A stretch of DNA of 64,000 bases from Mytilus edulis (lineage: Eukaryota): positions 75,950,001-76,014,000 of the forward strand of contig NC_092350.1 of NCBI RefSeq assembly GCF_963676685.1. Direction: 5' to 3'. Each line of letters begins with the position of its first letter. The stretch's first letter is position 1. Positions 18,194 to 44,800 of the stretch are shown piece by piece. The position numbers and the translations under genes were made by a program. Under the pieces are notes generated by a model that was not told the DNA's origin, made no database searches, and was given only the letters and a program-made list of their open reading frames with translations.

Positions 18194-18358
18194 GCAAACA
18201 GAGCAGCAAACGACGGCGATTATGCCTTCGCAGAAACAAAAGCTAGAAATGCCAGAAATTTTGTCATTGCTGCGTTTGTGACGGGAATAATTGTTTACGT
18301 CATAGTTATTGTGGTACGAGTGGTTTTGTATTCGTCATACTACAGCAGCGGCTACTAA
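18194..18358 (+). pseudogene. Orphan duplicated last exon of the CD225/dispanin gene
   Basis: tttcattgtag|[54 protein letters not shown]. It differs from 46205-46369 at one codon (GCG>TTG, A>L). No upstream exons 1-3 are present on this side. Confidence 0.85.
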
Positions 18359-19129: not shown

Positions 19130-19813
19130 AGGGGCACTAGCTACGAGATATATAAAAAACCAAAAGTATGATTTTTTTGTTCAATCATTAATGAAAGTGA
19201 AAAAGTGAAATAATAATTAGCTTTTATCAGCTAAAATGGTTCAATTTTGTAAAATTAACCTAATAAACATTGATAATGACTTATTCACTTGCAAGTGAAT
19301 AATTCGACCTTATTCAACCCGTATTCATGTGAACTCCAATTTAACCCCGTAGAAAGAGATAGAAAAACGCATGCAATGTCCGTGTACGGTTATTAAAAGG
19401 AAAAAATGTAAACATTGAAAGTGAAACAAAGGTAAATAATTTGATTAATTGATTCGATCCACAAAAAGTCATTCTTATAAAGCTAAAAACGACGGTAAAC
19501 ATAGTTTTTGAATCTATAATACAATATAATAGACTTTTAAAAATTCAATTGCACGTGTGGATTAATCTATTCATATCTATGTTTTTTTATGTTTACATCG
19601 TTTATATGGTCATATAAGGTCAACTCGATAGTTAATTAGATGGCGTCTTGGCTAAAATTCTCACGAAACGAAGCTACATCTTTTTGAGACCATGTCCTGT
19701 ACATTGTTTATTTTATACTTTTGATAGTTTGGAAACATATTTTACATTGTTATAAATAAAACATGTGGACTTGAGACAAATCGGTGATCATGAATTTGGC
19801 AGCTAGTGCCCCT
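19130..19813. mobile_element. Kolobok-like MITE, 684 bp, TTAA TSD (mirror copy 44750-45433)
   Basis: TTAA|AGGGGCACTAGCT ... AGCTAGTGCCCCT|TTAA. Confidence 0.85.
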
Positions 19814-21599: not shown

Positions 21600-22120
21600 C
21601 ACAGTAATCAAAAACATTAGTTGATTATCGTTTGGCCAAATATTCAGATGCAGTCGTATTATTCCATTGAGGCAAATACGACGCTATCCATTTCAAAGTT
21701 ACTTCTGTTTTATTTGTCTTTAATATTACATTCAACTCAACTAGAACCATCTATAAATGTATAATATGGCCCGTCTACCAGATGCTAGGACCAGTAAAGG
21801 ATGTACTAAATGACAAAATGTACAGTTTACATAAGTCGTTTGTGTATGATCCAATTATCCATTTATCAACAGTACTAAAAGATTCAATCTATGAAACATT
21901 CAGTATTGAATATGGGGATGCTTCCGCGAATATTAGTGCTTTTACAACAGTAGCCGTGGACAATATTGACAACAACAGGAGTTCAACTACGGCTAACGAA
22001 TCGTCACATATACTCCAATACATTACAAGCCAACACAACTTTTCGTATTATTGCTATAACTTAGTAACTAATATTATTAGTATAGAACAAGATATATATC
22101 CTAGCACTAACCAAATATAA
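21600..22120 (+). mobile_element. Degenerate relic of a large DNA-transposon-like ORF (mirror ~42400-42930)
   Basis: DKMYSLHKSFVYDPIIHLST...FTT(V/A)AVDNIDNNRSSTTANESSH resembles the recalled 'FTTAAVDNIDHNPSSTTAK.SFHG' motif of repetitive marine-invertebrate transposon-like proteins. The frame is broken upstream and downstream. Confidence 0.5.
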
Positions 22121-22703
22121 CCATGCGTTTCATACTTACATCGAGTAATAACCATATTATGGACATGCACTCTGTCAACTGTCTAACCAGAAATACCAAG
22201 TATAATTAGTATCTGGACATCATTCTACGCATATAATCGTGAAAACGCTGTTATTAAAAGGTACCTCAACTGTTTTATAATAGCGCAAGTTTAAACTTAG
22301 TTGATTTACTTGATTAACTGACGTAACAAATGTGTAGGACAATAGTCCAATGTTAGTAAGAAATGAATATGCTTAGATCCTGTAAATTATTTTCAACAAA
22401 AGATTGTGCATTATGATCAGTCAATAATCAGACGGAAAACAAAATAACGGCGGATCGCAAAAATGAAACCTCGCATTGATGCCGAGGTCGTTGAATCACA
22501 ATGATAACAATTACATGCACCCATTTCTAACTTAACAGTAACTAAATTAGTTCATGATCAAGGACAGTACCTTGAAAGAGCTATAAAGTAGAAATAAGTA
22601 AGAAAAACGTATATACTGTTTTTTTTTATTTTTATTTTTATTTTCTGGAACATTTCTACATAATGTTAACTTCAGAGTTCGACATGTTTTCCTCTTCCTT
22701 GAT

Positions 22704-25700
22704 CTAATTTCCCTTATAATATGTTGAATCGACTTGTTTTCTCCAAGTATTTGTTGGACATTTTGTATATGAACATTCTATGTTGTTCCAAGTAACTCTG
22801 TAATATATTAAACGAAATTGTAAATAAGTATACAAATAAAGTAAATAGAGTTCAAACTTAACGTACGAATATATATATAGCTATCTGCACTATCCTTAAT
22901 TCTGATATGTTCACATTCTGTGCCATACTTGAAGTACCTGATATTACTTTGTTTTCTGTGTTTGTTTAATGACATGTTTGGGGAAAGATACTCTTTATAT
23001 ATAAAGTAATACACAGACGAGTTACTTGAAAGGGTGCCGTTTTGATACGTGTGGGTTGCAATTTTGCCAAGTTAAAATATCAATGGGTAATTAACTATTA
23101 TCTTTCGAATATATATTTTTTGTTTACTTGCTGTTTAATCATAAAAGTTTTAAATACAAATTTAGATGTAAAAAATTGAATATGTAATAACTGAGAAATA
23201 TATGAATGGATCATGATTGTGACAATATATTTTTGAATATGTATTAACTGGTTTAAACTGGACGTTAAGCAAGAAACAATCAATCAATCAGTATTACAAC
23301 ACAATATTTGTTCAAATGAAGCAATATGCAACGTTTAAAATATGTAAGTATGTCTGCACATATATGTATATATTTATACTGATAACCAACAAAATTTCAA
23401 GGGCAAGTTATGATCACGTCTTCAGCGAGTAGAAGCAGTACCACGAGTAAATTAAACTTGGATCTTCCCGAAGTTTGTACTAGATAAAGGCAATTGTAGT
23501 ATACCGCTGTTCAATGGTCATAAATCGATTTAACTGAAACAAATCCGGGTCACAAACCAAAACTGAGGGAAACACGTCAACTATAAGAGGAAACAAAACT
23601 GTACACAAAATTTATATAGAGCTATCTGCATTATGTACACATTCAGTGCCATACTTGAAATATCATAGTTAAATCATTTGCTTCAGACTAAGCGGAAATA
23701 ATCAGTTAATTGGAATAGTTCTTTGCCAATTTTTTATCATTCAATATGAATCTAGTTCAATTATAAAACATACGTAAAGATAAAAGTATACAAACCCGCC
23801 ATCTTCACTGTTAAAACCAACGATAACCTTCCCTTTATTAACTCTATACGACCGCCCGTTTGATGTCGCGTCGTCCACTTGTACATCACAATCTCTGTAT
23901 GTGTACTCTATGTCTGCAAAAAAATATTACTTATAACAGCTCAAATATTTATTTGTTCATGTAAACATAACAAGAGCTGAAGATATTTTTTTAGCATATT
24001 TGAACTGTTAATTTAATACAAGAGCTGTTTGTGTATTTTTGAAAATATTACAATCATTACGTTCTCTGTGATGAAACTATTATGAATAACACTAATGTTC
24101 AAATTAGTGCAACTTCTCAGCACTGAAAATGTAAAAGATTTGCGTAATTTGTGTAAATTCTTGTTTAATGCACTTAATCATAGGACCAAACTGTTATTGG
24201 TCAATACTTGATATTTATTTGCTTCTCTGATGTATTATGTCATGTTGTGTTATAGAAATGTATTTGTATTTATTGCACTAATAAGCATAATGTGCTTAAA
24301 GTAATAAAGAATTGAATTGAACACTATACATGATGATACCAAAACATTTTCAGAGGGCCAAAATGGAACTAATTTAGCCACAGAAAAGCTTATCTCAGTT
24401 TTTCTTAAGACAGCAAATAAATCATCCCGAATGGTGAGAAAAAAGAAATACAAAAAGAAAACTGGTTAGATAAAAGAAGTCCGACAAAACGTAAACTGTT
24501 AGAAAAGCTGTTAAAAATGGAGTCTTATTAAGAATTAATTTATGATAAACTCTCAGACTCATCATTAAATAGTCCTTCTGCATTTTACTAAACTCCGTAT
24601 AAGTGATCATGGTCTTGAATTAAAAACTGGTCGGTGCACTAAAATTCTTTGAGAATAAAGACTATGTAAAAATCGAAGATGAATTTCAATTATTCTTAAA
24701 TGCAAAGTAAATACAAATATCAGACAAAACCTATATAATGATATACAATTAGAAGTTGAACATTTCATTCATGAAGACAAATTATTTTATATATTAAACC
24801 CAGATAGATTTATTGGCTTTATAAAAAAGGTCATTATAACTGGGGGGGGGGGGGGGGGGGGGGGGCAGTTGTCTGAAGTAACATGGCTATCTTAAAGAAA
24901 TGACCGTCACGAAATATTCAAATGTGTAGAAAGTATCATTAAGCACAAATCAACCAATCAGTCAAGAAGACATTTGATTATGTTAATTATTCCTGTGCTT
25001 CGTAAAATAATAATAATCCTATGATTTAAGAATTAAATGCTTTTTGTTATCCTATTCTGGTGTAATAGCATTGCTCATAGCCCATTTTATAAATTGGCGG
25101 TACATATCCAACTCTTTTAGAACTTGATAGAATTACAATTCATTCCATTACACCAATATCACATACATGTCATACGTTATACTGTCTACAACAATGACAT
25201 GTTTTTAGTATTACTTACTTTTGTCCTCACAACATCGAACGTTTTGACCAAATCCTTCTAAATATTCCCATCCACTTATATAGCCATATCCAGGACATTT
25301 GAAAGAGTTTTTCAAATTATAAACTACCGGAAAAAAAAGAAGATAGATTGATTAAATCGATACAGAATTGTTTTTTGCATATAAACATTGGCAGGACATA
25401 TGCTTTTTCAAATAGGATTTGTGTTCAGTCCGTAAAACTCATTTTTTTTCAATTATGCGGTTGTTCTTATATGTTTCTTACTGATTATCACAGTGAACTG
25501 ACACGTTTAAATCCGGATTAGTGTATCGGTCTAATACAAAGCATATTCATTTTGCATTAAAATGCTCTCCTTCTGCCTAATTATGCATTTTATAAACTCT
25601 TCATAAATACTAAGATTAAAAGTGTGTATACCGTTTATCAGCTTGGTATATACTATGTAAATGATAAATTAGCTAGTTTGATTTTCACTTCTACGAAACT

Positions 25701-26092
25701 TCAACTGTTGAAAGTTTTTTTTTTTACCTTAATAGTGAAGATATCGTTTAACATGTTTAAGTACCTTACCTTAATAGTGAGAATATCGTTTAAGTACCTT
25801 ACCTTAATAGTGAAGATATCGTTTGAGTACCTTACCTTAATAGTGAGGATATCGTTTAAGTACTTTACATATACTTACATAGAGTTTGGCACACTACGTT
25901 TTTTCCTGGTCCCGGTTTACACGTAAATGGAAACGGATCAGGGAATAGCTTATCAATGGAATCTCCGTCACGACAATACTGCCTATATGTTATTGGTCTC
26001 GATTTCTTTTTATCATTTTGGTAGCTACCAAGGACAGTGGAAGCAATAACGAGTAATATCAAACCTGTAAGTTGTAAACAAAAATATAACAT
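22704..26092 (-). CDS. Secreted Cys-rich, divergent dermatopontin/HAAF-like protein, copy A; exons 26092-25879, 25323-25219, 23913-23796, 22797-22704; 176 aa
   Basis: GT-AG exons of 214+105+118+94 nt with compatible phases 1/1/2, a signal peptide and an upstream TATAAAA. The protein is identical to copy B (one synonymous GGG/GGA difference seen). Confidence 0.75.
24095..24319 (+). mobile_element. LINE 3'-end fragment present only in the left arm
   Basis: MFKLVQLLSTENVKDLRNLCKFLFNAL, then AATAAA and a GAATT tail. Bounded by AACACTA at 24088-24094 and 24320-24326; the right arm has a single AACACTA. Confidence 0.55.
24560..24830 (+). mobile_element. Degenerate LINE ORF2 C-terminal zinc-knuckle relic (mirror ~39920-40190)
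   Basis: FTKLRISDHGLELKTGRCTK..*E*RLCK..IEDEFQLFL matches the RISxHxLxIExGR...RxC...IEDExHF motif, with stops and a frameshift. Confidence 0.65.
25725..25865. repeat. 33-bp tandem repeat (~4 units) in intron 1 of the secreted-protein gene (mirror 38880-39022)
   Basis: Unit taccttaatagtgaagatatcgtttaagtacct. Confidence 0.85.
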
Positions 26093-28200
26093 TTTTTCAC
26101 CAATATTAATACAAAGCATGGACACAATATTTTTATATTTTTACAGTTTTTACGTTACAGCTAAAGTTAATTGATCGATATTATATCATTTTAATGTTTG
26201 CATTTCTACTATCTAATGAACCTTGATCAAAATAATATCATGTAAATTTCTGCATTTCTGCTAACTAATCAACACTATAGATGTCAATTTTTTCTGATAT
26301 GTGGTATTCTAAAGACTCGAAAATGTCAGCCACATATCAAGTATACATATCAAAATGGTAACTTTTTATACTGACAAACTATTTTTGTTGGATGCTACAC
26401 TGCTTTCTGTAGGCAATCTGCATTCCTATGGTTAAACCAAAAGGTAAAATCACAAAAATACTGAACTCCGAGGAAAATTCAAAACGGAAAGTCCCTAATC
26501 ACCCAAATGCATGATTCGAAAACAAACTGATAAAGACATGCCATGGCAAAAAAAAATATACTGAAAAGCGTAGAAAACTAAAGTCGAGCAACCGGATCCA
26601 AACTAATAACCGGAACGATCACAAGTGCTCCGGAAGGCTAAACAGTTCCTGCTCCATATAGAACGACCCACGTGTTACTTCTATGAAACGCGGTAAATTA
26701 TACCAAGAGATAAGGTATCACACAATAGCGAATTACAGTTCAGTATTGGCTATATAATATTAAATGAAAAACAAAGGAGCATACATAAATTTCTGCAAAT
26801 TATGATTACATTGAGCGTTGCCATTAATTAATCTGTTAATGAAATAAATATAAGAACTTTCTATTTTGATAAATTCAGTTGATGTTCAATGCACATAGAA
26901 GAAGTCTATCAAAACATTGTTTTAATATTTATTGAGTTTTCATGAAAACAAATGTTCCATGGAGTATAAAATTTCTCTCATACAAAATTTTTAACAGAAA
27001 CATAAACCTTATCAGTGGAGTTGACTCGTCTTCGAAATAACACGAACGAGACTTACCTTCGCCATAAAACAAAACAAGATGTGAACGTACAGTGGTATGA
27101 GGATATGTGGTCCTAAGCGATGTCATCGCTGTAAACTTTAAATAAAGTACAAAAAAGCAACTTTCATTTTTGTCTAATACGCAAAGTGATTTAGATTTAT
27201 GATTTGTTTTTCTTAATATTATTACCTTTGTAGCTTAAACAAGCCATTGCAAACTGTAAGTAAGTAAGGTAAGTTTCCGTCCTTGAGTAACAAAGTTGTA
27301 GGTTAAGTTATAATGTACTATGGAAATCACCTTGCTTTATATACTTATTCAATTTAAGAAGTTAAAGCCCGTTAATAATGAAACCAAAATTAACAAGAAG
27401 CTATGTTAAATTAACTGAAACCCACCAGAAAGCAATTGAATGCGTCGGTGAACTAACAATATGCATTTGACAAACTGAAAATCGTTGATCTTGAAATTGG
27501 AATTGAATTCACGCCGAAAGATAGAAAACACATAAGTTAACACACAATATCAAACTATTGTCGACGAACCAGTACACAATAATTAGAAAGACAACACGAG
27601 CCATTAACAGGAAAAACTACTACAAACAAGAATAAAAAGTGTGTTAGTGAGGGTGTATAGAAAACTACTTTCCGTGAGAATGTTTTAAAATGTTTAAAAA
27701 AGAGCAAGGGGTAATAAAAACATAAGCTCAAGAAAATCAAAACGCACTACATTAAACAAAAGTAGACGTATAACATTTAACAAATTAGCCGGATCTGAGA
27801 CTGGAACGGGTTGTGCAGGAGAGGAAAGCAGTTTTTTTTTTATCTTTTGGTCGTTTGTAAAGGATAACTGAAAAAGTCGCATTAATGATTTCATATTTTT
27901 TAATTACTTAACAATTTGCAAGAATGATTGATAACGAAATATTGATATCCATTCAAGTACGTATGAAATCATTTTATAAACAATTCATTTAAAAAATACC
28001 TAGTGCTTTTCTATTACCATCTTTTAACTACCATTAACCTCTCTAAAACTTAATTTGATATTTTTAAAGTTAGTTTTTAAATGTTTTAAGAAACTAAGAT
28101 ACTATCTCCGTTTGACGAAGTTGACCTTACCATACGTCATTTTGCATATGGCCGTTCGGTCAGGGTTTTCCCTGGGTATTGAAGTATTCATAGATGTTGA

Positions 28201-28570
28201 GGATGTACTTAGTTGAGGTTTAGACATGTATTTCAGATGGTCAGACTCCTGGGTCAAAGCATGTTAAACCGTTATGCTTAATAACACTAATTTTTCTTAT
28301 CATATATGAAATTTATAGCTCAAAAAGGGTCATTTACCAAATTTTAAGCAGATTCTTGATTTCATTTCTTTCAATTTGAGACCCTTATAAAACCAATGCA
28401 AATATAAGGTTAAAGTCAAAGACAGTCTGCTTCCGCCAATTGTTTAAAATTAAATATCTCGAAAAGGAGCTGCAAAAACTATCAATATTTTGAGCTTATG
28501 CTTATGATTTTCCGACTTATTGTATCTATCTTAAAATCTGTTTTTTTCTTAATTTCCCTTAAGTACATCC
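28201..28570. mobile_element. Kolobok-like MITE (mirror 36160-36531)
   Basis: TTGA|GGATGTACTTA ... TAAGTACATCC|TTAA. Confidence 0.6.
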
Positions 28571-31121
28571 TTAAGCTTTAAAATGTTTGTAATTCCCTTA
28601 CATCTTCTGAAATTTCGTTTGAATGGAGTGGCTCAATTTTATCTTTTTTATTTGTGCTTCTTTTAATTGTTTCACTTTATGTTGAATTTTTTGTTATGGC
28701 ATTGTCTATTTAATATGAATTAAGGTTTCGGGTACCTTTGTTTTCTCATATTACTCTTTGTGTATGTACAGCGTCAATGCATCGTTTAAATTATAATAAT
28801 ATCGATTCACTGACTTGTTACGAGTTAGAACACTTCTCATAACATGTCCAATTGACTCGGAATCTTATTGCATAGGGTTGTCAGTGTTCGCGCTTAAGGC
28901 TGGTTTTTCCGAAAGTAGTATGACATGTATGACTTCCTTCATATAAAAAAAGAACCGTAAGGATAAAGCCAAGAGTATTGAAAATTGTCTGAACTACCTA
29001 CAATCAATCAATCAAATCACATGAACTGTTTACGCAAAGGTATTTTGATTTTAAAAATTTAAACCGGAAAAAAGGACTTCAAAGTGCATGTATTGTTCAA
29101 GTTGCATATACCAATGATAACAAATATATATATATATATTAATGTTACTCCTGCAAACATTATTTTTCTTTTCTCGTTCAAACTTTTTGAAAATTGTTAA
29201 TAATGATATGAATATAGAATATAGAATAAGGAGATGTGGAATGATTGCAAATGGGACAATGCCGACTTTAATCATTTGATTTATTTGCATACGATATATA
29301 GCTTATCATGTGTTTAAACTATTAGTCTTTCTGATAAATTATAAGATATGACTAAACTATTAGTCTTTCTGATAAATTATAAGATACGACTAAACATATC
29401 TGGTCTTTGTTTATTTTAATTTTAGTTTCTTGTACAATTTGGAAATTAGTATGGCGTTCATTATCACTGATGATAACTGGTTCTTTATTTCCGTGATTGG
29501 ACTATCATTTACCTGTAAGAAACCATTATTTTACCTTTAGCTGTCCAATATGTTTTAAGAATTGCCCTCTTCTTTCTTAAAAATATTTGACAGCTGTAAG
29601 GTAGCATGACTGATTCCTACAGGTAAATGATAGTTCAATCACTGAAATAAAAAAAAAACACTATTAATTACCCTAATTGTTTTCATCAAGTAAAGAAAAA
29701 TACAACTAAAGAACAAATGACAATTAAAAACAACATTGTATTAAAGTCAACTCCCAATACAATAATTTTGTCACTCATCAAAACGGTCTCTTGAGGGAAA
29801 AAAACTTTCAATTGATTTTTAACACTACCAATACTTATATCACAGAAATTTTTCTTATGTTTTGGGTTGTCTCTTTTCGCACTAATTCAATAAGTTGATT
29901 ATGGTCGTTGTAAGTCTTGTTTTTTTCCCTTTGTGAATTTCTTTTTTTTTTTAAGATTTAACCTCGTCCGTCTTTCTCTTTCTTCGTTCTTGCACTAACA
30001 ATATACTTTAATCACTTTATACATTTTGAAACACAAAACACATGTAAAGATTTTCACGGATACTATGAGCGGAAAATATGATAAGTCCTTGTGCACGTGC
30101 AAATCATGATACGCATACCCTGTGTAGTATTCTTCATGTAGCAGTACCTGTTTTTTAGTTGAGCTACTGTTTAAAGGGGCCAATTGCAACATGTAGGATA
30201 AATTTTAATGTAAAGAAGTTTATTTACAAAACAATTTTCCTACTTGATGAAATTATATCTTTGCTTGCTGTTTCTTTTGTTTTACTTTTTTCGACGTGTT
30301 AAACAATGTTTTAAGTAAGATATAAGCCTCTAACAGTCGATTCTGTAAAATATTAAACAAATATTTTACAGAATGGACTGTTGTCGGCTTATATACCTGA
30401 CATAATAGTCAAACATAATATTAATCTGGTTGTTTTTTAAATTACAGTCACCTTATCTCATTTAATTACATAAACTTTCCTTCACCCCCTGATGTTGAAC
30501 ATGTATGTTCTGTTCTATAAGTAGGTACGTAGGTGCCCATATTCACAAATTTGCACCATCCTGGGATCAATTATCAAACAAATTATTTCTGTATTATGGT
30601 TTTGAGTGTTTTGTAAATATCTTACAGAAACCAACTCTTTGAATTAGAATATTTTAGTAGCACTTGATAAAACTAATAATTTTATCTAAATCAAGGACAC
30701 ACTATTACATTTCTCCAATAGCCAGTGATGTTTATTGTTCGTTCTAAAAATCAATTACTATATGAAACAAAATATAAAGTATTTCTAACGACATTTGATA
30801 TGAACAGGGGTAATGGGATTTTGATTTATTTAACATTTTGTATATTATTTTTGGAAGCACCTGCTGCTGCTTTTTGTTATGTATCATTAATTAATACAAG
30901 CGATTAATTTCTATTTTTGCAATTTAAGATTACAAAACCTTGTCCTACATTCTCGTTTTAGCTTACATAGTTGTAAATTAACATGCTTGAAATTGTTTTT
31001 CTTTAAGTAATAGCCTTATGACGATGATTTTTTTCATATGTTTTTTAGTAAACTACATGTAATGATGGTAAGAAACAGAAAAATGAAAACATCTAATAAA
31101 TAAAATGATCGAAATATTATT

Positions 31122-31362
31122 AATAAAATTGAGAATGGAAATGGAGAATGTGCCAAAGAGACAACAACCCGACCATAGAAAAAAACAACAGCAGAAGGTC
31201 ACCAACAGGTCTTCAATGTAGCGAGAAATTCCCGCACCCGGAGGCGTTCTTCAACTGGCCCCTAAACAAATATATACTAGTTCAGTGATAATGAACGCCA
31301 TACTAATTTCCAAATTGTACACAAGAAACTAAAATCAAAATAATACAAGACTAACAAAGACC
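31122..31362 (+). mobile_element. Dispersed non-autonomous (Helitron-like) repeat; other copies at ~52350-52633 and 56519-56790
   Basis: Shared sequence ataaaattgagaatggaaatgg..aaagagacaacaacccgacc..cccgcacccggaggcgt..agtgataatgaacgccatactaatttcc. The class assignment is inference. Confidence 0.75.
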
Positions 31363-31617
31363 AGATATGTTTAGTCGTATCTTATAATTTATCCGAAAGA
31401 CTAATAGTTAAGTCATATCTTATATTTAATCAGAAAGACTAATAGTTTAAACACATGATAAGCTATATATCGTATGCAAATAAATCAAATGATTAAAGTC
31501 GGCATTGTCCCATTTGCAATCATCCACATCTCCTTAATCTATATTCATATCATTATTAACAATTTTCAAAAAGTTTGAACGAGAAAAGAAAAATAATGTT
31601 TGCAGGAGTAACATTAT

Positions 31618-31678
<61 letters not shown>

Positions 31679-31760
31679 TTGCCTAACAATGTAATTTTAA
31701 CACACTATTTAGTATGTAAATATAAGAATGTTTAAAATATTTACAAAATGATGAAAATAA

Positions 31761-31799
31761 ACGCAATATTTCGCTAGACCAACTAGCTTTATCAAGCGT
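31761..31799 (-). ncRNA. Mirror copy of the minimal hammerhead ribozyme motif
   Basis: Exact reverse complement of 34488-34526. Confidence 0.7.
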
Positions 31800-32073
31800 G
31801 CATCTATCCAGGTGAAATCGGATGTAGATGATAAGAAACTTTTGCAGCTCAACGTCTGTGTTGCACTGAACTGCCTTCAAAATAAGAAAATTTTGCAGCT
31901 CAATGTATATGACCTCTTGCATTTAGCTGCTTTGAAAATAAGAAAATTTTGCAGCTCAATGTACATGTTGCACTTGGATTTAGCTACCTTAAAAAATACA
32001 TAATTGGTAGTCGAAGTTAGCAACGTCCATTGGCCAATATTACGGGATAAAAAGGACGATGCTTTGTTTTAAA

Positions 32074-33054
32074 TTATTCTTTATCTTTCCTGTATCTTTT
32101 TTCGTCTTTTTCGTTAAGACCATCAGGTTCTAAAGTGTGGAGTTGGTGGATCCAAAAGTTTTCTCTTCTCCTTCTCGCCGTGGTGTCCCATTCGGTGTTG
32201 ACTTCTATAATTTGGAAAGTGACATTATCAAAAGGATGTTTCGTTGAACGAAGATGTCTTGTGAGAGGACAGTTTTTGTTGGTTTTGTACGATGAACGAT
32301 GGTTATTGAGCCGAATATTAAATTTGTCCATTGTTTCTCCCACATACTGAATGCCACAAGTGTCACATGTTAATATATAAATTGAGTTCTCCGTTTTACA
32401 GTTGGAATTAGAGTAGATGGTATAATTTTGTTTAGTAACGGAGCTGATGAAAGAACTGCTTGTATTGGCAGCTTTACAACACAAACAATTCCTTCGACCA
32501 CATTGTTTGTAGCAACCGGGCGATGGATTAGGCTGCTTGGTTAATACAGATGTCACTAATTTGTCACGGATGTTTTTAGGTCTTCTGAAGGCCATGACTG
32601 GTGGTGAAGAAAATACTTTTTTTAGATTTAAATCATTTTCTATAATTTTCCAATGCTTATGAACAATGGATGACACATTTTTAAAATCAGGATGGTAAGT
32701 GAGTACAAGGGGTGTTCTGTTAGCTGCTTTATTCTTATCTTTGTACTCAAGAAGTTCTTGGCGACTAGTTTTGTTTGCTCTTTCGAAAGCGCTATCAATA
32801 ATGTTGTTATTGTATCCTCGAACAACTAGATGTTTACGAAGTTGTCCAAGTCTAGCATTTTTCGTATTTTCAGTAGAGCATATTCTCTTGATTCGCAATG
32901 CCTGGCTGAATGGGATACCACGGGAGCAGTGTTTAGGATGGCAACTTTTAGGAGAAAGGAATTGATGTTTGTCCGTTTGTTTGGTATGAAGGTCCGTTAT
33001 AATGGTTCCGTTCTTGATGTAACTCGTAGTATCGAGGAAGTTTATTTTCTCCAT
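32074..33054 (-). CDS. PLE RT-thumb + Cys linker + GIY-YIG endonuclease ORF (326 aa), left arm
   Basis: INFLDT..DLHTKQTDKHQFL..SCHPKH..GIPFSQALRIKRICS; CGRRNCLCC; SIYILTCDTCGIQYVGET..RLNNHR..RRRRENFWIHQLHTLEPDGLN. Confidence 0.88.
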   Translation of the reverse strand: MEKINFLDTTSYIKNGTIITDLHTKQTDKHQFLSPKSCHPKHCSRGIPFSQALRIKRICSTENTKNARLGQLRKHLVVRGYNNNIIDSAFERANKTSRQELLEYKDKNKAANRTPLVLTYHPDFKNVSSIVHKHWKIIENDLNLKKVFSSPPVMAFRRPKNIRDKLVTSVLTKQPNPSPGCYKQCGRRNCLCCKAANTSSSFISSVTKQNYTIYSNSNCKTENSIYILTCDTCGIQYVGETMDKFNIRLNNHRSSYKTNKNCPLTRHLRSTKHPFDNVTFQIIEVNTEWDTTARRRRENFWIHQLHTLEPDGLNEKDEKRYRKDKE

Positions 33055-33143
33055 AGATGATTCATATGTAAATTTTATTGAATGGTGGAAAGAGTTGCAG
33101 TGTTCTAGAAATTCATTAAGATGTTCTTGTGAATCTGTCCATT

Positions 33144-34214
33144 AAATGGACAGATTCACAAGAACATCTTAATGAATTTCTAGAACACTGCAACTCTTTC
33201 CACCATTCAATAAAATTTACATATGAATCATCTATGGAGAAAATAAACTTCCTCGATACTACGAGTTACATCAAGAACGGAACCATTATAACGGACCTTC
33301 ATACCAAACAAACGGACAAACATCAATTCCTTTCTCCTAAAAGTTGCCATCCTAAACACTGCTCCCGTGGTATCCCATTCAGCCAGGCATTGCGAATCAA
33401 GAGAATATGCTCTACTGAAAATACGAAAAATGCTAGACTTGGACAACTTCGTAAACATCTAGTTGTTCGAGGATACAATAACAACATTATTGATAGCGCT
33501 TTCGAAAGAGCAAACAAAACTAGTCGCCAAGAACTTCTTGAGTACAAAGATAAGAATAAAGCAGCTAACAGAACACCCCTTGTACTCACTTACCATCCTG
33601 ATTTTAAAAATGTGTCATCCATTGTTCATAAGCATTGGAAAATTATAGAAAATGATTTAAATCTAAAAAAAGTATTTTCTTCACCACCAGTCATGGCCTT
33701 CAGAAGACCTAAAAACATCCGTGACAAATTAGTGACATCTGTATTAACCAAGCAGCCTAATCCATCGCCCGGTTGCTACAAACAATGTGGTCGAAGGAAT
33801 TGTTTGTGTTGTAAAGCTGCCAATACAAGCAGTTCTTTCATCAGCTCCGTTACTAAACAAAATTATACCATCTACTCTAATTCCAACTGTAAAACGGAGA
33901 ACTCAATTTATATATTAACATGTGACACTTGTGGCATTCAGTATGTGGGAGAAACAATGGACAAATTTAATATTCGGCTCAATAACCATCGTTCATCGTA
34001 CAAAACCAACAAAAACTGTCCTCTCACAAGACATCTTCGTTCAACGAAACATCCTTTTGATAATGTCACTTTCCAAATTATAGAAGTCAACACCGAATGG
34101 GACACCACGGCGAGAAGGAGAAGAGAAAACTTTTGGATCCACCAACTCCACACTTTAGAACCTGATGGTCTTAACGAAAAAGACGAAAAAAGATACAGGA
34201 AAGATAAAGAATAA
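33144..34214 (+). CDS. PLE polyprotein C-terminal part (RT downstream of the catalytic DD, thumb, GIY-YIG endonuclease); first Met at 33234
   Basis: Uninterrupted frame KWTDSQEHLNEFLEHCNSFHHSIKFTYESSMEKINFLD... to stop 34214. The ORF-track N-terminus (33129-33143) is only the mirrored arm. Confidence 0.88.
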   Translation, partial: KWTDSQEHLNEFLEHCNSFHHSIKFTYESSMEKINFLDTTSYIKNGTIITDLHTKQTDKHQFLSPKSCHPKHCSRGIPFSQALRIKRICSTENTKNARLGQLRKHLVVRGYNNNIIDSAFERANKTSRQELLEYKDKNKAANRTPLVLTYHPDFKNVSSIVHKHWKIIENDLNLKKVFSSPPVMAFRRPKNIRDKLVTSVLTKQPNPSPGCYKQCGRRNCLCCKAANTSSSFISSVTKQNYTIYSNSNCKTENSIYILTCDTCGIQYVGETMDKFNIRLNNHRSSYKTNKNCPLTRHLRSTKHPFDNVTFQIIEVNTEWDTTARRRRENFWIHQLHTLEPDGLNEKDEKRYRKDKE

Positions 34215-34701
34215 TTTAAAACAAAGCATCGTCCTTTTTATCCCGTAATATTGGCCAATGGACGTTGCTAACTTCGACTACCAATTATGTATTTTTTAAG
34301 GTAGCTAAATCCAAGTGCAACATGTACATTGAGCTGCAAAATTTTCTTATTTTCAAAGCAGCTAAATGCAAGAGGTCATATACATTGAGCTGCAAAATTT
34401 TCTTATTTGAAGGCAGTTCAGTGCAACACAGACGTTGAGCTGCAAAAGTTTCTTATCATCTACATCCGATTTCACCTGGATAGATGCACGCTTGATAAAG
34501 CTAGTTGGTCTAGCGAAATATTGCGTTTATTTTCATCATTTTGTAAATATTTTAAACATTCTTATATTTACATACTAAATAGTGTGTTAAAATTACATTG
34601 TTAGGCAATCTATAATTTTATTTGTGTAATTGAATTAATCTCTGTACTGATTAATCCACACTCGTATAGATTTGTATGTCATGTGCTGCTATTTATAGGC
34701 A

Positions 34702-34703
<2 letters not shown>
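33145..34703 (+). mobile_element. Penelope-like element (Neptune-type), 5'-truncated, right hairpin arm with the longer 3' end
   Basis: ORF, then a 3' region with three ~60-bp imperfect repeats and a hammerhead motif, ending at (TA)n 34704-34751. Confidence 0.92.
34488..34526 (+). ncRNA. Minimal type-I hammerhead ribozyme motif, variant U3/A8 core
   Basis: Stem I ACGC, core TTGATAA plus an extra A, stem II GCTAG-ttggt-CTAGC, GAAA, palindromic mini stem III (ATAT), T17, stem I' GCGT. It lies in the PLE 3' region where such motifs are expected. Confidence 0.7.
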
Positions 34704-34751
<48 letters not shown>

Positions 34752-34753
<2 letters not shown>

Positions 34754-35139
34754 ACTCGTCTAAACATCAACCCAACAATGTTAGATCTGTAAATTTGCTT
34801 TCGCAAATTTTTGGTTCTTCCCTCGCCGGGATTCGAACCCATGCTACTGTGATATCGTGATACCAAATCGCCTGCACTGCAGCCGTCCCGCTAGACCACA
34901 CGACCACCTAGGCTCTCATAAAAAGAGCTTTCGCTGGCCGTGTGTTACCTTTCCACGTCAGTTTTAATCTAGCGGCGTACTACAGTACATGATATATAAG
35001 GCATGAAGATGTTATTGTTACAGATCAGCTAAATTATCTATAGTAAAGGATCCTACAAATTAATGTAATATACAGTCACAGAAAATAATTATATTTATAA
35101 GTACGTCTGAGTCAGTGACAACTCTACAACAGATGTATC
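34752..35139 (-). mobile_element. (TA)n-flanked repeat with a tRNA-derived core (34818-34913)
   Basis: The minus strand reads GCCTAGGTGGTCGTGTGGTCTAGCG...GGGTTCGAATCCCGGCGAGGG with Pol III A and B boxes but no proper cloverleaf. (TA)n lies on both sides, and the element is absent from the left arm. Confidence 0.7.
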
Positions 35140-38100
35140 TATATATATATATTTTTTATCATTGGTATATGCAACTTGAACAATACAGGCACTTTGAAGT
35201 CCTTTTTTCCGGTTTAAATTTTTAAAATGAAAATACCTTTGCGTAAACAGTATTTTATCTATTCACATTCAAGGTTTTGGAAAATGTTTGATACTGATTT
35301 CAATACAAAATAAGGAGATATGGAATGACTGCAGATTATACAATTTTCAAGCATCCTTCAAATGAAGTGGATTTAAGAAAATATAAGTCACTTCATTACC
35401 TTCGACAATGACTAAAACTCATACCATTCAGTCAACTATAAATGTTTCAACAGGACAAAATCATTTTTACAATTCCAGCGAAAATAACAATGGCTTGATG
35501 CATGACACACAATAAAAAACACAATTATTACAGACGGCAACCAACACCAATGATTGAATCACAGACATATTTTTATATATAATTAGTCTTGCTTTGGCGT
35601 GTTAAGTGAACCTAGCCCTCAAATAACCTGGGACATAGAATTGATAACACAACATAAGAATAAACTGACAACATGGTCCATGTCCAACACTTATGTTCAT
35701 GTGATTTGATTGATTGATTGTAGGTAGTTCAGACAATTTTCAATACTCTTGGCTTTATCCTTACGGTTCTTTTCTTTATATGAAGGAAGTCATACATGTC
35801 ATACTACTTTCGGAAAAACCAGCCTTAGGCGCGAACAATGACAACCCTATTCAATAAGATTCCGAGTCAATTGGACATGTTATGAGACGTGTTCTAACTC
35901 GTAACAAGTCAGTGAATCGATATTATTATAATTTAAACGATGCATTGACGCTGTACATACACAAAGAGTAATATGAGAAAACAAAGGTACCCGAAACCTA
36001 AATTCATATTAAATAGACAATGCCATAACAAAAAATTCAACATAAAGTGAAACAATTAAAAGAAGCACAAATAAAAAATATAAAATTGAGCCACTCCATT
36101 CAAACGAAATTTCATAAGATGTAAGGGGAAGTCACAATAACAAACATTTTAAAGCTTAAGGATGTACTTAAGGGAAATTAAGAAAAAAAAACAGATTTTA
36201 AGATAGATACAATAAGTCGGAAAATCATAAGCATAAGCTCAAAATATTGATAGTTTTTGCAGTTCCTTTTCGAGATATTTAATTTTAAACAATTGGCGGA
36301 AGCAGACTGTCTTTGACTTTAACCTTATATTTGCATTGGTTTTATAAGGGTCTCAAATTGAAAGAAATGAAATCAAGAATCTGCTTAAAATTTGGTAAAT
36401 GACCCTTTTTGAGCTATAAATTTCATATATGATAAGAAAAATTAGTGTTATTAAGCAAAACGGTTTAACATGCTTTGACCAAGGAGTCTGACCATCTGAA
36501 ATACATGTATAAACCTCAACTAAGTACATCCTCAACATCTATGAATACTTCAATACCCAGGGAAAACCCTGACCGAACGGCCATATGCAAAATGACGTAT
36601 GGCAAGGTCAACTTCGTCAAACGGAGATAGTATCTTAGTTTCTTAAAACATTTAAAAACTAACTTTAAAAATATCAAATTAAGTTTTAGAGAGGTAAATG
36701 GTAGTTAAAAGATGGTAATAGAAAAGCACTAGGTATTTTTTAAATGAATTGTTTATAAAATGATTTCATACGTACTTGAATGGATATCAATATTTCGTTA
36801 TTAATCATTCTTGCAAATTGTTAAGTAATTAAAAAAATATGAAATCATTAATGCGACTTTTTCAGTTATCATTTACAAACGACCAAAAGATAAAAAAAAA
36901 AAACTGCTTTCCTCTCCTGCACAACCCGTTCCAGTCTCAGATCCGGCTAATTTGTTAAATGTTATACGTCTACTTTTGTTTAATGTAGTGCGTTTTGATT
37001 TTCTTGAGCTTATGTTTTTATTACCCCTTGCTCTTTTTTAAACATTTTAAAACATTCTCACGGAAAGTAGTTTTCTATACACCCTCACTAACACACTTGT
37101 TATTCTTGTTTGTAGTAGTTTTTCCTGTTAATGGCTCGTGTTGTCCGATTTCTAATTATTGTGTACTGGTTCGTCGACAATAGTTTGATATTGTGTGTTA
37201 ACTTATGTGTTTTCTATCTTTCGGCGTGAATTCAATTCCAATTTCAAGATCAACGATTTTCAGTTTGTCAAATTCATATTGTTAGTTCACCGACGCATTC
37301 AATTGCTTTCTGGTGGGTTTCAGTTAATTTAACATAGCTTCTTGTTAATTTTGGTTTCATTATTAACGGGCTTTAACGTCTTAAATTGAATAAGTATATA
37401 AAGCAAGGTGATTTCCATAGTACATTATAACTTAACCTACAACTTTGTTACTCAAGGACGGAAACTTACCTTACTTACTTACAGTTTGCAATGGCTTGTT
37501 TAAGCTACAAAGGTAATAATATTAAGAAAAACAAATCATAAATCTAAATCACTTTGCGTATTAGACAAAAATGAAAGTTGCTTTTTTGTACTTTATTTAA
37601 AGTTTACGGCGATGACATCGCTTAGGACCACATATCCTCATACCACTGTACGTTCACATCTTGTTTTGTTTTATGGCGAAGGTAAGTCTCGTTCGTGTTA
37701 TTTCGAAGACGAGTCAACTCCACTGATAAGGTTTATGTTTCTGTTAAAAATTTTGTGTGAGAGAAATTTTATACTTCATGGAACATTTGTTTTCATGAAA
37801 ACTCAATAAATATTAAAACAATGTTTTGAAAGACTTCTTCTATGTGCATTGAACATCAACTGAATTTATCAAAATAGAAAGTTCTTATATTTATTTCATT
37901 AACAGATTAATTAATGGCAACGCTCAATGTAATCATAATTTGCAGAAATTTATGTATTCTCCTTTGTTTTTCATTTAATATTATATAGCCAATACTGAAC
38001 TGTAATTCGCTATTGTGTGATACCTTATCTCTTGGTATAGTTTACCGCGTTTCATAGAAGTAACACGTGGGTCGTTCTATATGGAGCAGGAACTGTTTAG

Positions 38101-38653
38101 CCTTCCGGAGCACTTGTGATCGTTCCGGTTATTAGTTTGGATCCGGTTGCTCGACTTTAGTTTGCTACGCTTTTCCGTATTTTTTTTTTTGCCATGGCAT
38201 GTCTTTATCAGTTTGTTTTCGAATCATGCATTTGGGTGATTAGGGACTTTCCGTTTTGAATTTTCCTCGGAGTTCAGTATTTTTGTGATTTTACTTTTTG
38301 GTTTAACCATAGGAATGCAGATTGCCTACAGAAAGCAATGTAGCATCCAACAAAAATAGTTTGTCAGTATAAAAAGTTACCATTTTGATATGTATACTTG
38401 ATATGTGGCTGACATTTTCGAGTCTTTAGAATACCACATATCAGAAAAAATTGACATCTATAGTGTTGATTAGTTAGCAGAAATGCAGAAATTTACATGA
38501 TATTATTTTGATCAAGGTTCATTAGATAGTAGAAATGCAAACATTAAAATGATATAATATCGATCAATTAACTTTAGCTGTAACGTAAAAACTGTAAAAA
38601 TATAAAAATATAAAAATATTGTGTCCATGCTTTGTATTAATATTGGTGAAAAA

Positions 38654-41600
38654 ATGTTATATTTTTGTTTACAACTTACAGGTTTGATATTACTCGTTAT
38701 TGCTTCCACTGTCCTTGGTAGCTACCAAAATGATAAAAAGAAATCGAGACCAATAACATATAGGCAGTATTGTCGTGACGGAGATTCCATTGATAAGCTA
38801 TTCCCTGATCCGTTTCCATTTACGTGTAAACCGGGACCAGGAAAAAACGTAGTGTGCCAAACTCTATGTAAGTATATGTAAAGTACTTAAACGATATCCT
38901 CACTATTAAGGTAAGGTACTCAAACGATATCTTCACTATTAAGGTAAGGTACTTAAACGATATTCTCACTATTAAGGTAAGGTACTTAAACATGTTAAAC
39001 GATATCTTCACTATTAAGGTAAAAAAAAACAACTTTCAACAGTTGAAGTTTCGTAGAAGTGAAAATCAAACTAGCTAATTTATCATTTACATAGTATATA
39101 CCAAGCTGATAAACGGTATACACACTTTTAATCTTAGTATTTATGATGAGTTTATAAAATGCATAATTACATTTTAATGCAAAATGAATATGCTTTGTAT
39201 TAGACCGATACACTAATCCGGATTTAAACGTGTCAGTTCACTGTGATAATCAGTAAGAAACATATAAGAACAACCGCATAATTGAAAAAAAATGAGTTTT
39301 ACGGACTGAACACAAATCCTATTTGAAAAAGCATATGTCCTGTCAATGTTTATATGCAAAAAACAATTCTGTATCGATTTAATCAATCTATCTTCTTTTT
39401 TTCCCGGTAGTTTATAATTTGAAAAACTCTTTCAAATGTCCTGGATATGGCTATATAAGTGGATGGGAATATTTAGAAGGATTTGGTCAAAACGTTCGAT
39501 GTTGTGAGGACAAAAGTAAGTAATACTAAAAACATGTCATTGTTGTAGACAGTATAACGTATGACATGTATGTGATATTGGTGTAATGGAATGAATTGTA
39601 ATTCTATCAAGTTCTAAAAGCGTTGGATATGTACCGCCAATTTATAAAATGGGCTATGAGCAATGCTTTTACACCAGAATAAGATAACAAAAAGCATTTA
39701 ATTCTTAAATCATAGGATTATTATTATTTTACGAAACACAGGAATAATTAACATAATCAAATGTCTTCTTGACTGATTGGTTGATTTGCGCTTAATGCTA
39801 CTTTCTACACATTTGAATATTTCGTGACGGTCATTTCTGTAAGATAGCCATGTTACTTCAGACAACTGCCCACATGTATCCCCCCTCCCCCCCCCCCCCC
39901 CCCCCCCCAGTTATAATGACCTTTTTTATAAAGCCAATAAATCTATCGGGGTTTAATATATAAAATAATTTGTCTTCATGAATGAAATGTTCAACTTCTA
40001 ATTGTATATCATTATATAGGTTTTGTCTGATATTTGTATTTACTTTGCATTTAAGAATAATTGAAATTCATCTTCGATTTTACATAGTCTTTATTCTCAA
40101 AGAATTTTAGTGCACCGACCAGTTTTTAATTCAAGACCATGATCACTTATACGGAGTTTAGTAAAATGCAGAAGGACTATTTAATGATGAGTCTGAGAGT
40201 TTATCATAAATTAATTCTTAATAAGACTCCATTTTTAACAGCTTTTCTAACAGTTTACGTTTTGTCGGACTTCTTTTATCTAACCAGTTTTCTTTTTTTA
40301 TTTCTTTTTTCTCACCATTCGGGATGATTTATTTGCTGTCTTAAGAAAAACTGAGATAAGCTTTTCTGTGGCTAAATTAGTTCCATTTTGGCCCTCTGAA
40401 AATGTTTTGGTATCATCATGTATAGTGTTATTCATAATAGTTTCATCACAGAGAACGTAATGATTGTAATATTTTCAAAAATACACAAACAGCTCTTGTA
40501 TTAAATTAACAGTTCAAATATGCTAAAAAAAATATCTTCAGCTCTTGTTATGTTTACATGAACAAATAAATATTTGAGCTGTTATAAGTAATATTTTTTG
40601 CAGACATAGAGTACACATACAGAGATTGTGATGTACAAGTGGACGACGCGACATCAAACGGGCGGTCGTATAGAGTTAATAAAGGAAAGGTTATCGTTGG
40701 TTTTAACAGTGAAGATGGCGGGTTTGTATACTTTTATCTTTACACATGTTTTATAATTGAACTAGATTCATATTGAATGATAAAAAATTGGCAAAGAACT
40801 ATTCCAATTAACTGATTATTTCCGCTTAGTCTGAAGCAAATGATTTTACTATGATATTTCAAGTATGGCACTGAATGTGTACATAATGCAGATAGCTCTA
40901 TATAAATTTTGTGTACAGTTTTGTTTCCTCTTATAGTTGACGTGTTTCCCTCAGTTTTGGTTTGTGACCCGGATTTGTTTCAGTTAAATCGATTTATGAC
41001 CATTGAACAGCGGTATACTACAATTGCCTTTATCTAGTACAAACTTCGGGAAGATCCAAGTTTAATTTACTCGTGGTACTGCTTCTACTCGCTGAAGACG
41101 TGATCATAACTTGCCCTTGAAATTTTGTTGGTTAGCAGTATAAATATATACATATATGTGCAGACATACTTACATATTTTAAACGTTGCATGTTGCTTCA
41201 TTTGAACAAATATTGTGTTGTAATACTGATTGATTGATTGTTTCTTGCTTAACGTCCAGTTTAAACCAGTTAATACATATTCAAAAATATATTGTCACAA
41301 TCATGATCCATTCATATATTTCTCAGTTATTACATATTCAATTTTTTACATCTAAATTTGTATTTAAAACTTTTATGATAAAACAGCAAGTAAACAAAAA
41401 ATATATATTCGAAAGATAATAGTTAATTACCCATTGATATTTTAACTTGGCAAAATTGCAACCCACACGTATCAAAACGGCACCCTTTCAAGTAACTCGT
41501 CTGTGTATTACTTTATATATAAAGAGTATCTTTCCCCATACATGTCATTAAACAAACACAGAAAACAAAGTAATATCAGGTACTTCAAGTATGGCACAGA

Positions 41601-41816
41601 ATGTGAACATATCAGAATTAAGGATAGTGCAGATAGATATATATATATTCGTACGTTAAGTTTGAATTCTATTTACTTTATTTGTATACTTATTTACAAT
41701 AATTTCGTTTAATATATTACAGAGTTACTTGGAACAACATAGAATGTTCATATACAAAATGTCCAACAAATACTTGGAGAAAACAAGTCGATTCAACATA
41801 TTATAAGGGAAATTAG
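38654..41816 (+). CDS. Secreted Cys-rich, divergent dermatopontin/HAAF-like protein, copy B; exons 38654-38867, 39411-39515, 40604-40721, 41723-41816; 176 aa
   Basis: MLYFCLQLTGLILLVIASTVLG-SYQNDKKKSRPITYRQYCRDGDSIDKLFPDPFPFTCKPGPGKNVVCQTL|FYNLKNSFKCPGYGYISGWEYLEGFGQNVRCCEDK|NIEYTYRDCDVQVDDATSNGRSYRVNKGKVIVGFNSEDG|GVTWNNIECSYTKCPTNTWRKQVDSTYYKGN*. TATAAAA at ~38601-38616 and an AATAAA cluster at ~41878-41895. Confidence 0.75.
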
Positions 41817-44800
41817 ATCAAGGAAGAGGAAAACATGTCGAACTCTGAAGTTAACATTATGTAGAAATGTTCCAGAAAATAAAAATAAAAATAAAAAAAA
41901 ACAGTATATACGTTTTTCTTACTTATTTCTACTTTATAGCTCTTTCAAGGTACTGTCCTTGATCATGAACTAATTTAGTTACTGTTAAGTTAGAAATGGG
42001 TGCATGTAATTGTTATCATTGTGATTCAACGACCTCGGCATCAATGCGAGGTTTCATTTTTGCGATCCGCCGTTATTTTGTTTTCCGTCTGATTATTGAC
42101 TGATCATAATGCACAATCTTTTGTTGAAAATAATGGTTAGTTTACAGGATCTAAGCATATTCATTTCTTACTAACATTGGACTATTGTCCTACACATTTG
42201 TTACGTCAGTTAATCAAGTAAATCAACTAAGTTTAAACTTGCGCTATTATAAAACAGTTGAGGTACCTTTTAATAACAGCGTTTTCACGATTATATGCGT
42301 AGAATGATGTCCAGATACTAATTATACTTGGTATTTCTGGTTAGACAGTTGACAGAGTGCATGTCCATAATATGGTTATTACTCGATGTAAGTATGAAAC
42401 GCATGGTTATATTTGGTTAGTGCTAGGATATATATCTTATTCTATACTAATAATATTAGTTACTAAGTTATAGCAATAATACGAACAGTTGTGTTGGCTT
42501 GTAATGTATTGGAGTATATGTGACGATTCGTTAGCCGTAGTTGAACTCCTGTTGTTGTCAATATTGTCCACGGCTGCTGTTGTAAAAGCACTAGGATTCG
42601 CGGAAGGATCCCCATATTCAATACTGAATGTTTCATAGATTGAATCTTTTAGTACTGTTGATAAATGGATAATTGGATCATACACAAACGACTTATGTAA
42701 ACTGTACATTTTGTCATTTAGTACACCCTTTACTGGTCCTAGCATCTGGTAGACGGGCCATATTATACATTTATAGATGGTTCTAGTTGAGTTGAATGTA
42801 ATATTAAAGACAAATAAAACAGAAGTAACTTTGAAATGGATAGCGTCGTATTTGCCTCAATGGAATAATACGACTGCATCTGAATATTTGGTTAAACGAT
42901 AATCAACTAATGTTTTTGATTACTGTGGACAAGAGTTTTGCTTACATCTTGTCTTTGTGAACTACTTTTATGTGTAGCTTTTTCACGTATCGTTGTCGTA
43001 CGAGCAGATTGTTGCGGTTGCCTGTTTAATTGCAACACAAATATAACCATTGAACAGAAGAAGTAAGCAACTGCCTTGTTAATTGCATGGCAAGCCTCAG
43101 ATTACTGCTCATTACTATGTCCTGTTCCACCTGATCATAAAGAAAACTATTTCATTCTAGTTTAGTCTAGCTTAAATGTTAGAATAACGCCAGTATCCAA
43201 ACGTGATCCCTCGTTGTAGACTACATTAAGTATGGTACCGTATGCAACTATGGTACCGTAGTTTTTCTGAATTGTCTTCACAAATTATTTGATGTTTGGC
43301 TTTAGTATAAAAATGAAGCATGCACTTGGTATCAAAGTCACTTGATTCTACTGAAGGTACGTCAAAACAAAACACTTTTGTAACCATATATAATGGATAT
43401 TTGTTGATTTTGATATTTCAACATAAGTTATATTGTTCGAAGCATCCAGTCCGTCTAACATTCAAAATTAGAACTTGTACATTATTATTAAGTGAAATTT
43501 GTTGGTTTTGATATTTTGAGACGGCCATCTTGGATTAAAGCAGCTATACTGAAATGTCAAAGTTGGTCCATGGATTATGTTTTTGAAATACCTCGCACTA
43601 CTATCATGACAAATTTGGCACTGATTTTGATCTTGTAAAGATCTATTGATTTTGATATTTTACGGCGGTCATTTTGAAAAAAGCCGCCATATTGAAATTT
43701 CAAGGTGGGTCCATAGCTAATATTTTTTTAAACACCCAAAACTACTACCATTCCAAATTTTGTGCTTTTATCATCAAACCCACAATTTGTTCACCGATCT
43801 GCCGTACTGTAGTGATCAGTATGATATTAGGCAGCATTATTGTATGACAACATAACCCGGAGTTGTTTTTGTCTCAATCGAATTGTGACTTTCGAACAGC
43901 AGTATACTAATGTTGCTTTTACATGTTTTATTAGTCATTATTTCATAAGTACAGACTCCTTCTAAGCCAGCACTCGTCTATCCGTGGCAGTTATTGATCT
44001 TTGCTTTCTGATAGTTTTTACTTAAGCACAACGAAGAGTCCAGTATAGTCGAAGTGCGCATATGGCATGCTGTAATTGTTAATTGGTTTCTATGACCAAT
44101 CAACATGTTTTGATATAGCATTTCAAAAAATTTACCCAGAATGTATTTGGTTCCGACGAGGTGAATAACAACATGCACTACAATGTAGAAGTCATTAATT
44201 TTAATTGAAAAATAATAGAATAAAGAAGATGGCTGGTTTTAATACTTTTATTTAAAGAGACAGTAACGATATCAACATTGTTTTAAAAGTTATATTATAA
44301 AAATATTCATAACTCTATATAAAGTCTTGGTGAAACAATTACAATGTATAGATTTCCATTTGAGACGAAGCAGGCCCGCTTGCAAGTTTTACCCTAGACA
44401 GAACATTTCCAAAAACAAATTTTGAAATTATACATAAACTGAAAAATATATATTTCCATACTTTAATTTCAACGATCGAAACTTCGGACTAATTCCTTTC
44501 CGTTCACCCGATTAGAAGCTATTATATTATATAATGAATTTAGTATCATTGTCTTTCATACACTCATGGGTTGTCTCGAATTTGTCGAAGCGTTGTCATT
44601 CCTTAATTGTCCTTCAATGAAATTGTAACGTCATATTGCTTTGTAGATACGAAAACAAATAAATTCTATGAAAAATAAACAAATGCTTATCACACAGCTC
44701 ACTTGAATCCATGACTAAAAGGTTAAATAAAAGTTTAAAACATTTTTAAAGGGGCACTAGCTGCCAAATTCATGATCACCGATTTGTCTCAATTCCACAT

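Follow-up and report, generated by a model that had tools for sequence, protein, structure and literature searches.

The gene and its two copies

A stretch of 64,000 nucleotides (nt) from Mytilus edulis (NCBI RefSeq assembly GCF_963676685.1, contig NC_092350.1, positions 75,950,001 to 76,014,000 of the forward strand), referred to here as 'the window', contains two copies of a gene for a small, Cys-rich protein that is predicted to be secreted and, very probably, to adopt a dermatopontin-type fold. All coordinates below are positions within the window, which is AT-rich (28-37% GC per 2 kb). The copies are arranged head-to-head and are transcribed divergently, the right one from the + strand (37491-41816) and the left one from the - strand (27247-22704). 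They differ at one synonymous position, 40686, in 525 coding nt, and the proteins they specify are identical. Built from its coordinates, the gene has five coding exons and four introns, all GT..AG in both copies, and its product is 174 amino acids (aa) long. The initial annotation of the locus recognized the divergent orientation, the identity of the proteins and the number of junctions, four, but it settled on four exons and 176 aa; to reach the last motif, W..EC, and the stop codon at 41816 takes a fifth exon. It noted, too, that the gene is invisible in a track of open reading frames (ORFs), and this is so: the exons range from 22 to 186 nt, and none is found among the window's ORFs of at least 100 aa.

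Coding in the right copy begins with micro-exon 1a (37491-37512; seven codons plus 1 nt, donor GTAATA) or, alternatively, with exon 1b (37612-37681; donor GTAAGT), which yields a product of 190 aa. Exon 2 (38682-38867) encodes the core of the signal peptide and putative repeat 1; exon 3 (39411-39515), putative repeat 2, closing in a Cys-Cys pair; exon 4 (40604-40721, with a weak donor, GTTTGT), the first part of putative repeat 3; and the coding part of exon 5 (41723-41816), the end of repeat 3, the ninth Cys and the stop. The corresponding exons of the left copy, whose protein is identical, are 27247-27226 (1a), 27126-27057 (1b), 26064-25879, 25323-25219, 23913-23796 and 22797-22704. A pyrimidine tract and AG end 7 nt upstream of the ATG of exon 1a, and so a non-coding exon may come first. 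The TATA box and poly(A) signals described earlier are present—a TATA-like site at 37394, and AATAAA at 41878, 41884 and 41890—but they are weak evidence, since 16-23% of random windows of like size contain the former and 13% the latter. Intron 4 contains a short internal duplication (40855-40902 and 41542-41646, +) that reads as a Cys-containing peptide, with an AG next to it at 41578; the peptide is absent from all the relatives.

The product, of some 17.7 kDa and basic, is predicted to be a small secreted protein with a signal peptide, as was proposed at the outset. Its N-terminal stretch is hydrophobic (11-residue Kyte-Doolittle mean up to 3.0), as are the N-termini of its relatives, and nine of its ten Cys residues follow the signal. 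Tyr makes up 8.5% of the residues. The three motifs quoted in the initial annotation are all found: YCRDGDSI..FTC, FKCPGYGYISG..CC and YRVNKGKVIVGFNS..W..EC.

Public annotation and transcripts

The gene is real and already annotated, albeit uncharacterized; as regards public annotation, 'hidden', the term first applied to it, is wrong. RefSeq protein XP_076080227.1 (190 aa; LOC143051057 of Mytilus galloprovincialis) is identical over exons 2-5, and CAG2240460.1 of M. edulis is identical to the window protein but lacks exon 3. Neither has a family assignment. Both differ from the model we favor in their first exon, 1b (37612-37681) instead of 1a (37491-37512). We favor 1a because the N-termini of the relatives appear to fit it better: in these the hydrophobic stretch starts with a Gly that only a handful of residues precede, and in four of the seven with a full N-terminus a Lys stands no more than two residues before that Gly.

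Four of 24 sequencing runs were examined for transcripts. One of them, X1, an RNA run by the search tool's guess, contains a 346-nt contig of depth 6 from which introns 2 and 3 have been removed exactly as the gene model predicts, and which thus spans both junctions of exon 3 and, through the 39515-40604 joint, at the acceptor of exon 4. The contig differs from the window gene at 38 letters, and in exon 2 all five amino-acid-changing codons among ten listed substitutions match a paralogue, P0004. Splicing across introns 2 and 3 is confirmed, therefore, for the paralogue and not for the window's own gene. Junctions 1 and 4 are outside the reach of this contig; the last rests on annotation and homology, and the first, tentatively, on the gene model and the relatives' N-termini.

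A probable inverted duplication

The two copies sit in inverted arms of approximately 11 kb, a larger duplication that the initial annotation, which had called the gene duplicated, did not report. The left arm (17588-29470, -) has its outer end in a 52-nt minisatellite and its inner end in a dispersed repeat; the right arm (31282-46975, +) lies beyond a spacer (29470-31282). Across 10854 aligned nt the arms differ by 104 substitutions, or 0.96%. Peculiar to the left arm is an extra segment, some 220-232 nt long, inserted at 24094-24326, and only the right arm contains insertions at about 31633-35137 and 35251-35695. The spacer itself includes two short imperfect palindromes, at 29481-29654 (77%) and 30320-30394 (83%).

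A convergent CD225/dispanin gene (46205-51309, -; pieces 51302-51043, 47886-47761 and 46369-46205) reaches into the right arm with its last exon only. The left arm contains an orphan copy of that exon (18194-18358, +), one amino acid different and without the upstream exons, and the right arm is therefore the probable parent locus.

That the duplication is real, and young, we consider probable. It is quite possible, if less so, that there is one gene only and that the left arm represents a second haplotype, which the assembly attached to the first at repeats and the wrong way round. Both junctions are indeed within repeats, a single RefSeq accession is listed for the protein, and the arm divergence of 0.96% is lower than the mean heterozygosity of M. 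galloprovincialis, given as 1.73% in a passage of PMC7653742. Contigs point the same way. Run X1 contains an unspliced contig of 2581 nt (depth 56.8) that runs from 40423 through exon 4, intron 4 and exon 5 to 42400 or beyond, with its mirror at 22120-24313, and within 40424-42400 it has the left-type letter at nine of ten substitutions, together with six substitutions of its own. A contig from a second run, X9, shows left-type letters but not the insertion peculiar to the left arm. In mixing left and right variants, these contigs, which come from other animals, show that the variants behave like alleles; a mixture of this kind could equally result from gene conversion or from template switching between homologues, however. 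And on its outer side the left arm passes cleanly into a flank of its own, one with F-box/leucine-rich repeat (LRR) and PXMP4-like genes. False haplotype duplications are usually tandem and direct, or lie on contigs of their own; here the arrangement is inverted, about a unique spacer of 1.8 kb. The 'duplicated' of the initial annotation may, then, be a product of assembly.

The unspliced contig is curious in its own right. In X1, most of the gene upstream of it has no depth. An overhang of 219 nt would carry it to 24313, a point within the left-only insertion that lies 5 nt past an AATAAA on the opposite strand. Its position suggests that the contig is the 3' end of an antisense transcript, perhaps that of the CD225 gene—a lead only, as contigs show no strand. 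If this is true, an abundant antisense transcript could keep the gene silent in most tissues.

A family in Mytilus

Searching 1.84 billion representative sequences with phmmer produced ten matches at E<=0.001. Three are Mytilus proteins with names, five are single-exon fragments without one, and two are repeat proteins matched by chance. A search with a family profile produced nine, eight of them named Mytilus proteins and the other a fragment. Every relative that carries a species name in these searches comes from Mytilus, and the suggestion that the gene is lineage-specific fits them: within their reach the family appears to be confined to this genus. Fourteen aligned members, which share 41-78% of their residues with the window protein in its RefSeq form, span several clades in M. 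galloprovincialis, M. edulis, M. trossulus and M. californianus. Judged by these sequences, the family is expanded and fast-evolving.

Seven Cys residues are conserved in all 14 members and an eighth in 13, the exception having the look of a read-through model. The ninth occurs in three only, and the two closest relatives have Arg instead, which leaves the early idea of dimerization through the odd Cys weak. Human dermatopontin has a fifth disulfide, and the ninth Cys appears to lie near the place of its C-terminal partner, the other partner being missing here; the ninth Cys may be a remnant of that disulfide, or a chance substitution. With so few members carrying it, a part in dimers throughout the family is unlikely. 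The dipeptide DR occurs in none of the 14, and so the loss of the DR motifs, described for the window protein, extends to the whole alignment. In one protein alone this absence would have a 52% chance, and it matters only given the fold. RGD occurs in no member, either. What 12 of the 14 do have is S/T-x-D-x-G-x-T-W, an Asp-box-like hairpin at the third loop, which arose in three of 20000 shuffles. The mature proteins are basic in all seven cases computed (pI 8.5-9.3; window protein 8.5). A literature search, with most subscription journals outside its reach, found none of six family accessions named, and its listed matches for dermatopontin together with Mytilus included no title about this family.

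Fold

The argument for the fold comes mainly from feature and structure searches of the ESM Atlas. The window protein scores 0.91 against its top cluster, in which only 20% of members carry DERM, the dermatopontin family. A relative 47% identical to its RefSeq form, P0019, scores 0.91 against clusters in which 86% and 93% do, and all ten of the best family-bearing Atlas matches share the DERM family or clan. The stored Atlas model of P0019 (predicted template modeling score, pTM, 0.66) superimposes on dermatopontin with a template modeling (TM) score of 0.68 over 139 residues, enough for the tool to give it the name. The Cys scaffold, with the Cys-Cys pair that closes repeat 2, is conserved across members. 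Taken together, these models and features argue that the fold is very probably of dermatopontin type, as the initial annotation proposed from Cys spacing. A VMO-I cluster at 0.76 is a lead only; the same literature search found nothing that pairs dermatopontin with the beta-prism.

Proposed function

Our best explanation, toward which we lean, is that the protein is a secreted, basic, DR-less member of the dermatopontin fold that acts, on a ligand other than the usual one, as a small multivalent adhesive or cross-linker in matrix or mucus. In its favor are the intact exons of both copies, the identical annotated proteins in two species, the family, the paralogue's spliced contig, the conservation of the Cys residues, the Atlas matches, the basic charge and Asp-box motif and, at a marginal P value of about 0.03, a coding sequence more conserved than the arms as a whole (one difference in 525 nt versus 0.96%). 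Starting from gene structure, conservation and charge, which we observe, the mechanism might run as follows. The transcript would be spliced from the five coding exons, micro-exon 1a being the favored first, and the signal peptide, to judge from hydropathy, cleaved near residue 20. The eight conserved Cys residues would form four disulfides, locking three repeats into the dermatopontin fold. The D-R-x-W hairpins of dermatopontins—whose presumed positions here follow the repeat pattern of the initial annotation—would be exchanged for a Pro-rich turn, a Gly-rich turn and the Asp-box-like S/T-x-D-x-G-x-T-W hairpin. With these hairpins replaced, and the net charge positive, the likely partners would be polyanions, for example glycans that are sulfated or proteins of the matrix that are acidic. 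The second copy would have come from the recent inverted duplication of ~11 kb, both ends of which are in repeats, and probably not from a second haplotype.

Several results pull the other way. None of the four runs examined yielded a spliced contig or read from the window's own gene, and the junctions confirmed are two, both of them the paralogue's. In a pair of raw RNA runs labeled as a different organism, read to about 6% and 18%, the exons had no coverage. The structural match of P0019 is between one predicted model and another, the query having a pTM of 0.66; Atlas feature scores of 0.9 occur for 4-10% of shuffled proteins; and two AlphaFold models of the window protein itself are of low confidence (predicted local distance difference test, pLDDT, 28.6 and 36.9). 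The Pfam model proposed as a check, DERM (PF14704; cut-off 28.3 bits), matches none of the 15 full-length members at E<=10, and alignment of protein thirds with hhalign (shallow profiles, P0017 left out) gives internal repeats a probability of 4% or less; by eye, repeats 2 and 3 can be made out.

A rival reading is that the family is an orphan, rich in Cys but of separate origin from dermatopontin, and that the likeness is convergent or over-read from predicted models. The hhalign result and the low-confidence AlphaFold models speak for it. No Pfam family is significant in the same 15 members, and the family profile finds nothing among PDB sequences at E<=10. Even so, we regard this as improbable: for two different members the Atlas, searched by structure and by features, puts DERM clusters first, and the Cys spacing fits. 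The scaffold is upheld by the Atlas features and the P0019 model and left without support by Pfam and by the protein's own AlphaFold models. With the Pfam and DR tests failed, we describe the protein as dermatopontin-like by its probable fold and do not file it as a member of the family.

The same fold could serve, alternatively, in an immune agglutinin of haemolymph or mucus, by analogy with the Limulus haemagglutinin/amoebocyte aggregation factor or the parasite-binding plasma dermatopontins of snails. Plasma dermatopontins of Biomphalaria were recovered on matrices of schistosome protein, according to a passage of PMC5433772, and the gill of M. galloprovincialis is the site of strong enrichment of a dermatopontin transcript, according to one of PMC4581086. 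Expansion and fast evolution of the family suit such a role, too. The identity of the protein in two species would be out of keeping with a hypervariable effector, though, and we think the agglutinin unlikely. Less likely still is a structural protein of shell matrix or byssus, to which the Tyr content (8.5%) and basic charge would be suited. Analogy can be drawn here with the shell dermatopontins that portions of PMC3374290 report in Biomphalaria and Lottia, and with dermatopontin's independent recruitment into the shell in two snail lineages that portions of PMC7747718 report; set against these is the silence of the literature search, proteome supplements lying outside it, on the six family accessions.

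A bolder version combines these threads. The family might be an undescribed, expanded Mytilus branch of the dermatopontin fold, basic, without any of the three DR loops and with an Asp-box hairpin, whose members form a class of their own among adhesives or agglutinins, one that binds glycans or polyanions, and that is silenced in most tissues, possibly, by an antisense transcript. We offer this tentatively, and would sooner bet against it than for it.

Whichever is correct, an unannotated mussel family missed by sequence profiles now has a candidate fold and a working hypothesis. Comparison of a DR-less with a canonical member would be a natural experiment on the role of the conserved DR loops of dermatopontin. 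If the protein belongs to byssus, mucus or immunity, it is an addition to the adhesive and defence toolkit of mussels; otherwise, it joins the many secreted families that evolve fast in this genome, where lineage-specific duplications abound.

Neighboring genes and elements

Within the right arm, at a (TA)n tract, lies a 5'-truncated Penelope-like element arranged as a head-to-head palindrome (31673-34614). Its arms are perfect for 1264 nt around 33144, with a 1-nt centre, and the halves differ by one homopolymer base. An intact frame of 355 aa ends in a GIY-YIG domain (PF01541, 29.7 bits, cut-off 22.6) and includes what we take, by eye, to be the C-terminal part of a reverse transcriptase. 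The element may be a young insertion in the right arm or, alternatively, a fold-back sequencing artefact. A passage of PMC3846280 gives head-to-head palindromic junctions as the usual arrangement of such elements; unlike those, the whole 1.47-kb truncated element is mirrored here, around a single nucleotide. An insert beside the same (TA)n tract (about 34760-35137), in which we see by eye a motif like a tRNA B-box, is probably a short interspersed nuclear element; ARAGORN and Rfam found nothing in it.

The CD225/dispanin protein has an N-terminus rich in Gln, Gly and Pro. Both arms contain a Ser/Thr/Asn-rich open frame of 139-149 aa (42440-42856, -, and 21671-22120, +), located at the distal end of the 2581-nt unspliced contig, for which no Pfam match is significant. 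In the left flank, the F-box/LRR gene (15750-16720, -) consists of two overlapping frames, of 203 and 175 aa, with an apparent frameshift near 16110-16277, or else is a retrocopy. A Tim17/PMP24-family exon at 10257-10634 and, by eye, a probable last exon at about 11824-12070 (both +) form the PXMP4-like gene.

Comparison with known systems

The dermatopontin family, PF14704, whose namesake is an adhesive protein of the matrix with a wide distribution, includes vertebrate DPT/TRAMP, the shell and plasma dermatopontins of molluscs, the Limulus 18-kDa haemagglutinin/amoebocyte aggregation factor and the cytotoxin-like proteins of Millepora. In each dermatopontin repeat there is, following the initial annotation, a D-R-x-W/F motif. 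The window family lacks this dipeptide in all 14 members, as well as a Pfam match, is basic, and has an Asp-box-like hairpin in repeat 3; the loops of the window protein appear shorter than those of the canonical repeat. It differs from mammalian dermatopontin in charge, too, having a pI of 8.5 whereas DPT is described as acidic in PMC4196157, and it lacks, by inspection, the RGAT integrin site, a motif that a passage of PMC7703894 ascribes to dermatopontin, along with RGD.

The hairpin invites comparison with BNR/Asp-box proteins (PF02012), the consensus of which is that of the S/T-x-D-x-G-x-T-W motif; Pfam BNR matches two of nine members scanned, at E 0.11-0.13. Unlike those proteins, the window family has a single motif, scores 13 bits against a cut-off of 27, and gives no sign of a beta-propeller.

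The window protein is, like dermatopontins, small, Tyr-rich and predicted to be secreted; it shares a Cys scaffold in which a Cys-Cys pair follows the middle repeat; and the predicted fold of its relative matches theirs at a TM score of 0.68. Peptides of Biomphalaria dermatopontin-2 include the pieces CPDG, YTCPG and FYCC, in the portion of PMC5433772 that presents them, and these Cys-bearing pieces, judged by eye, are comparable to those of the window family.

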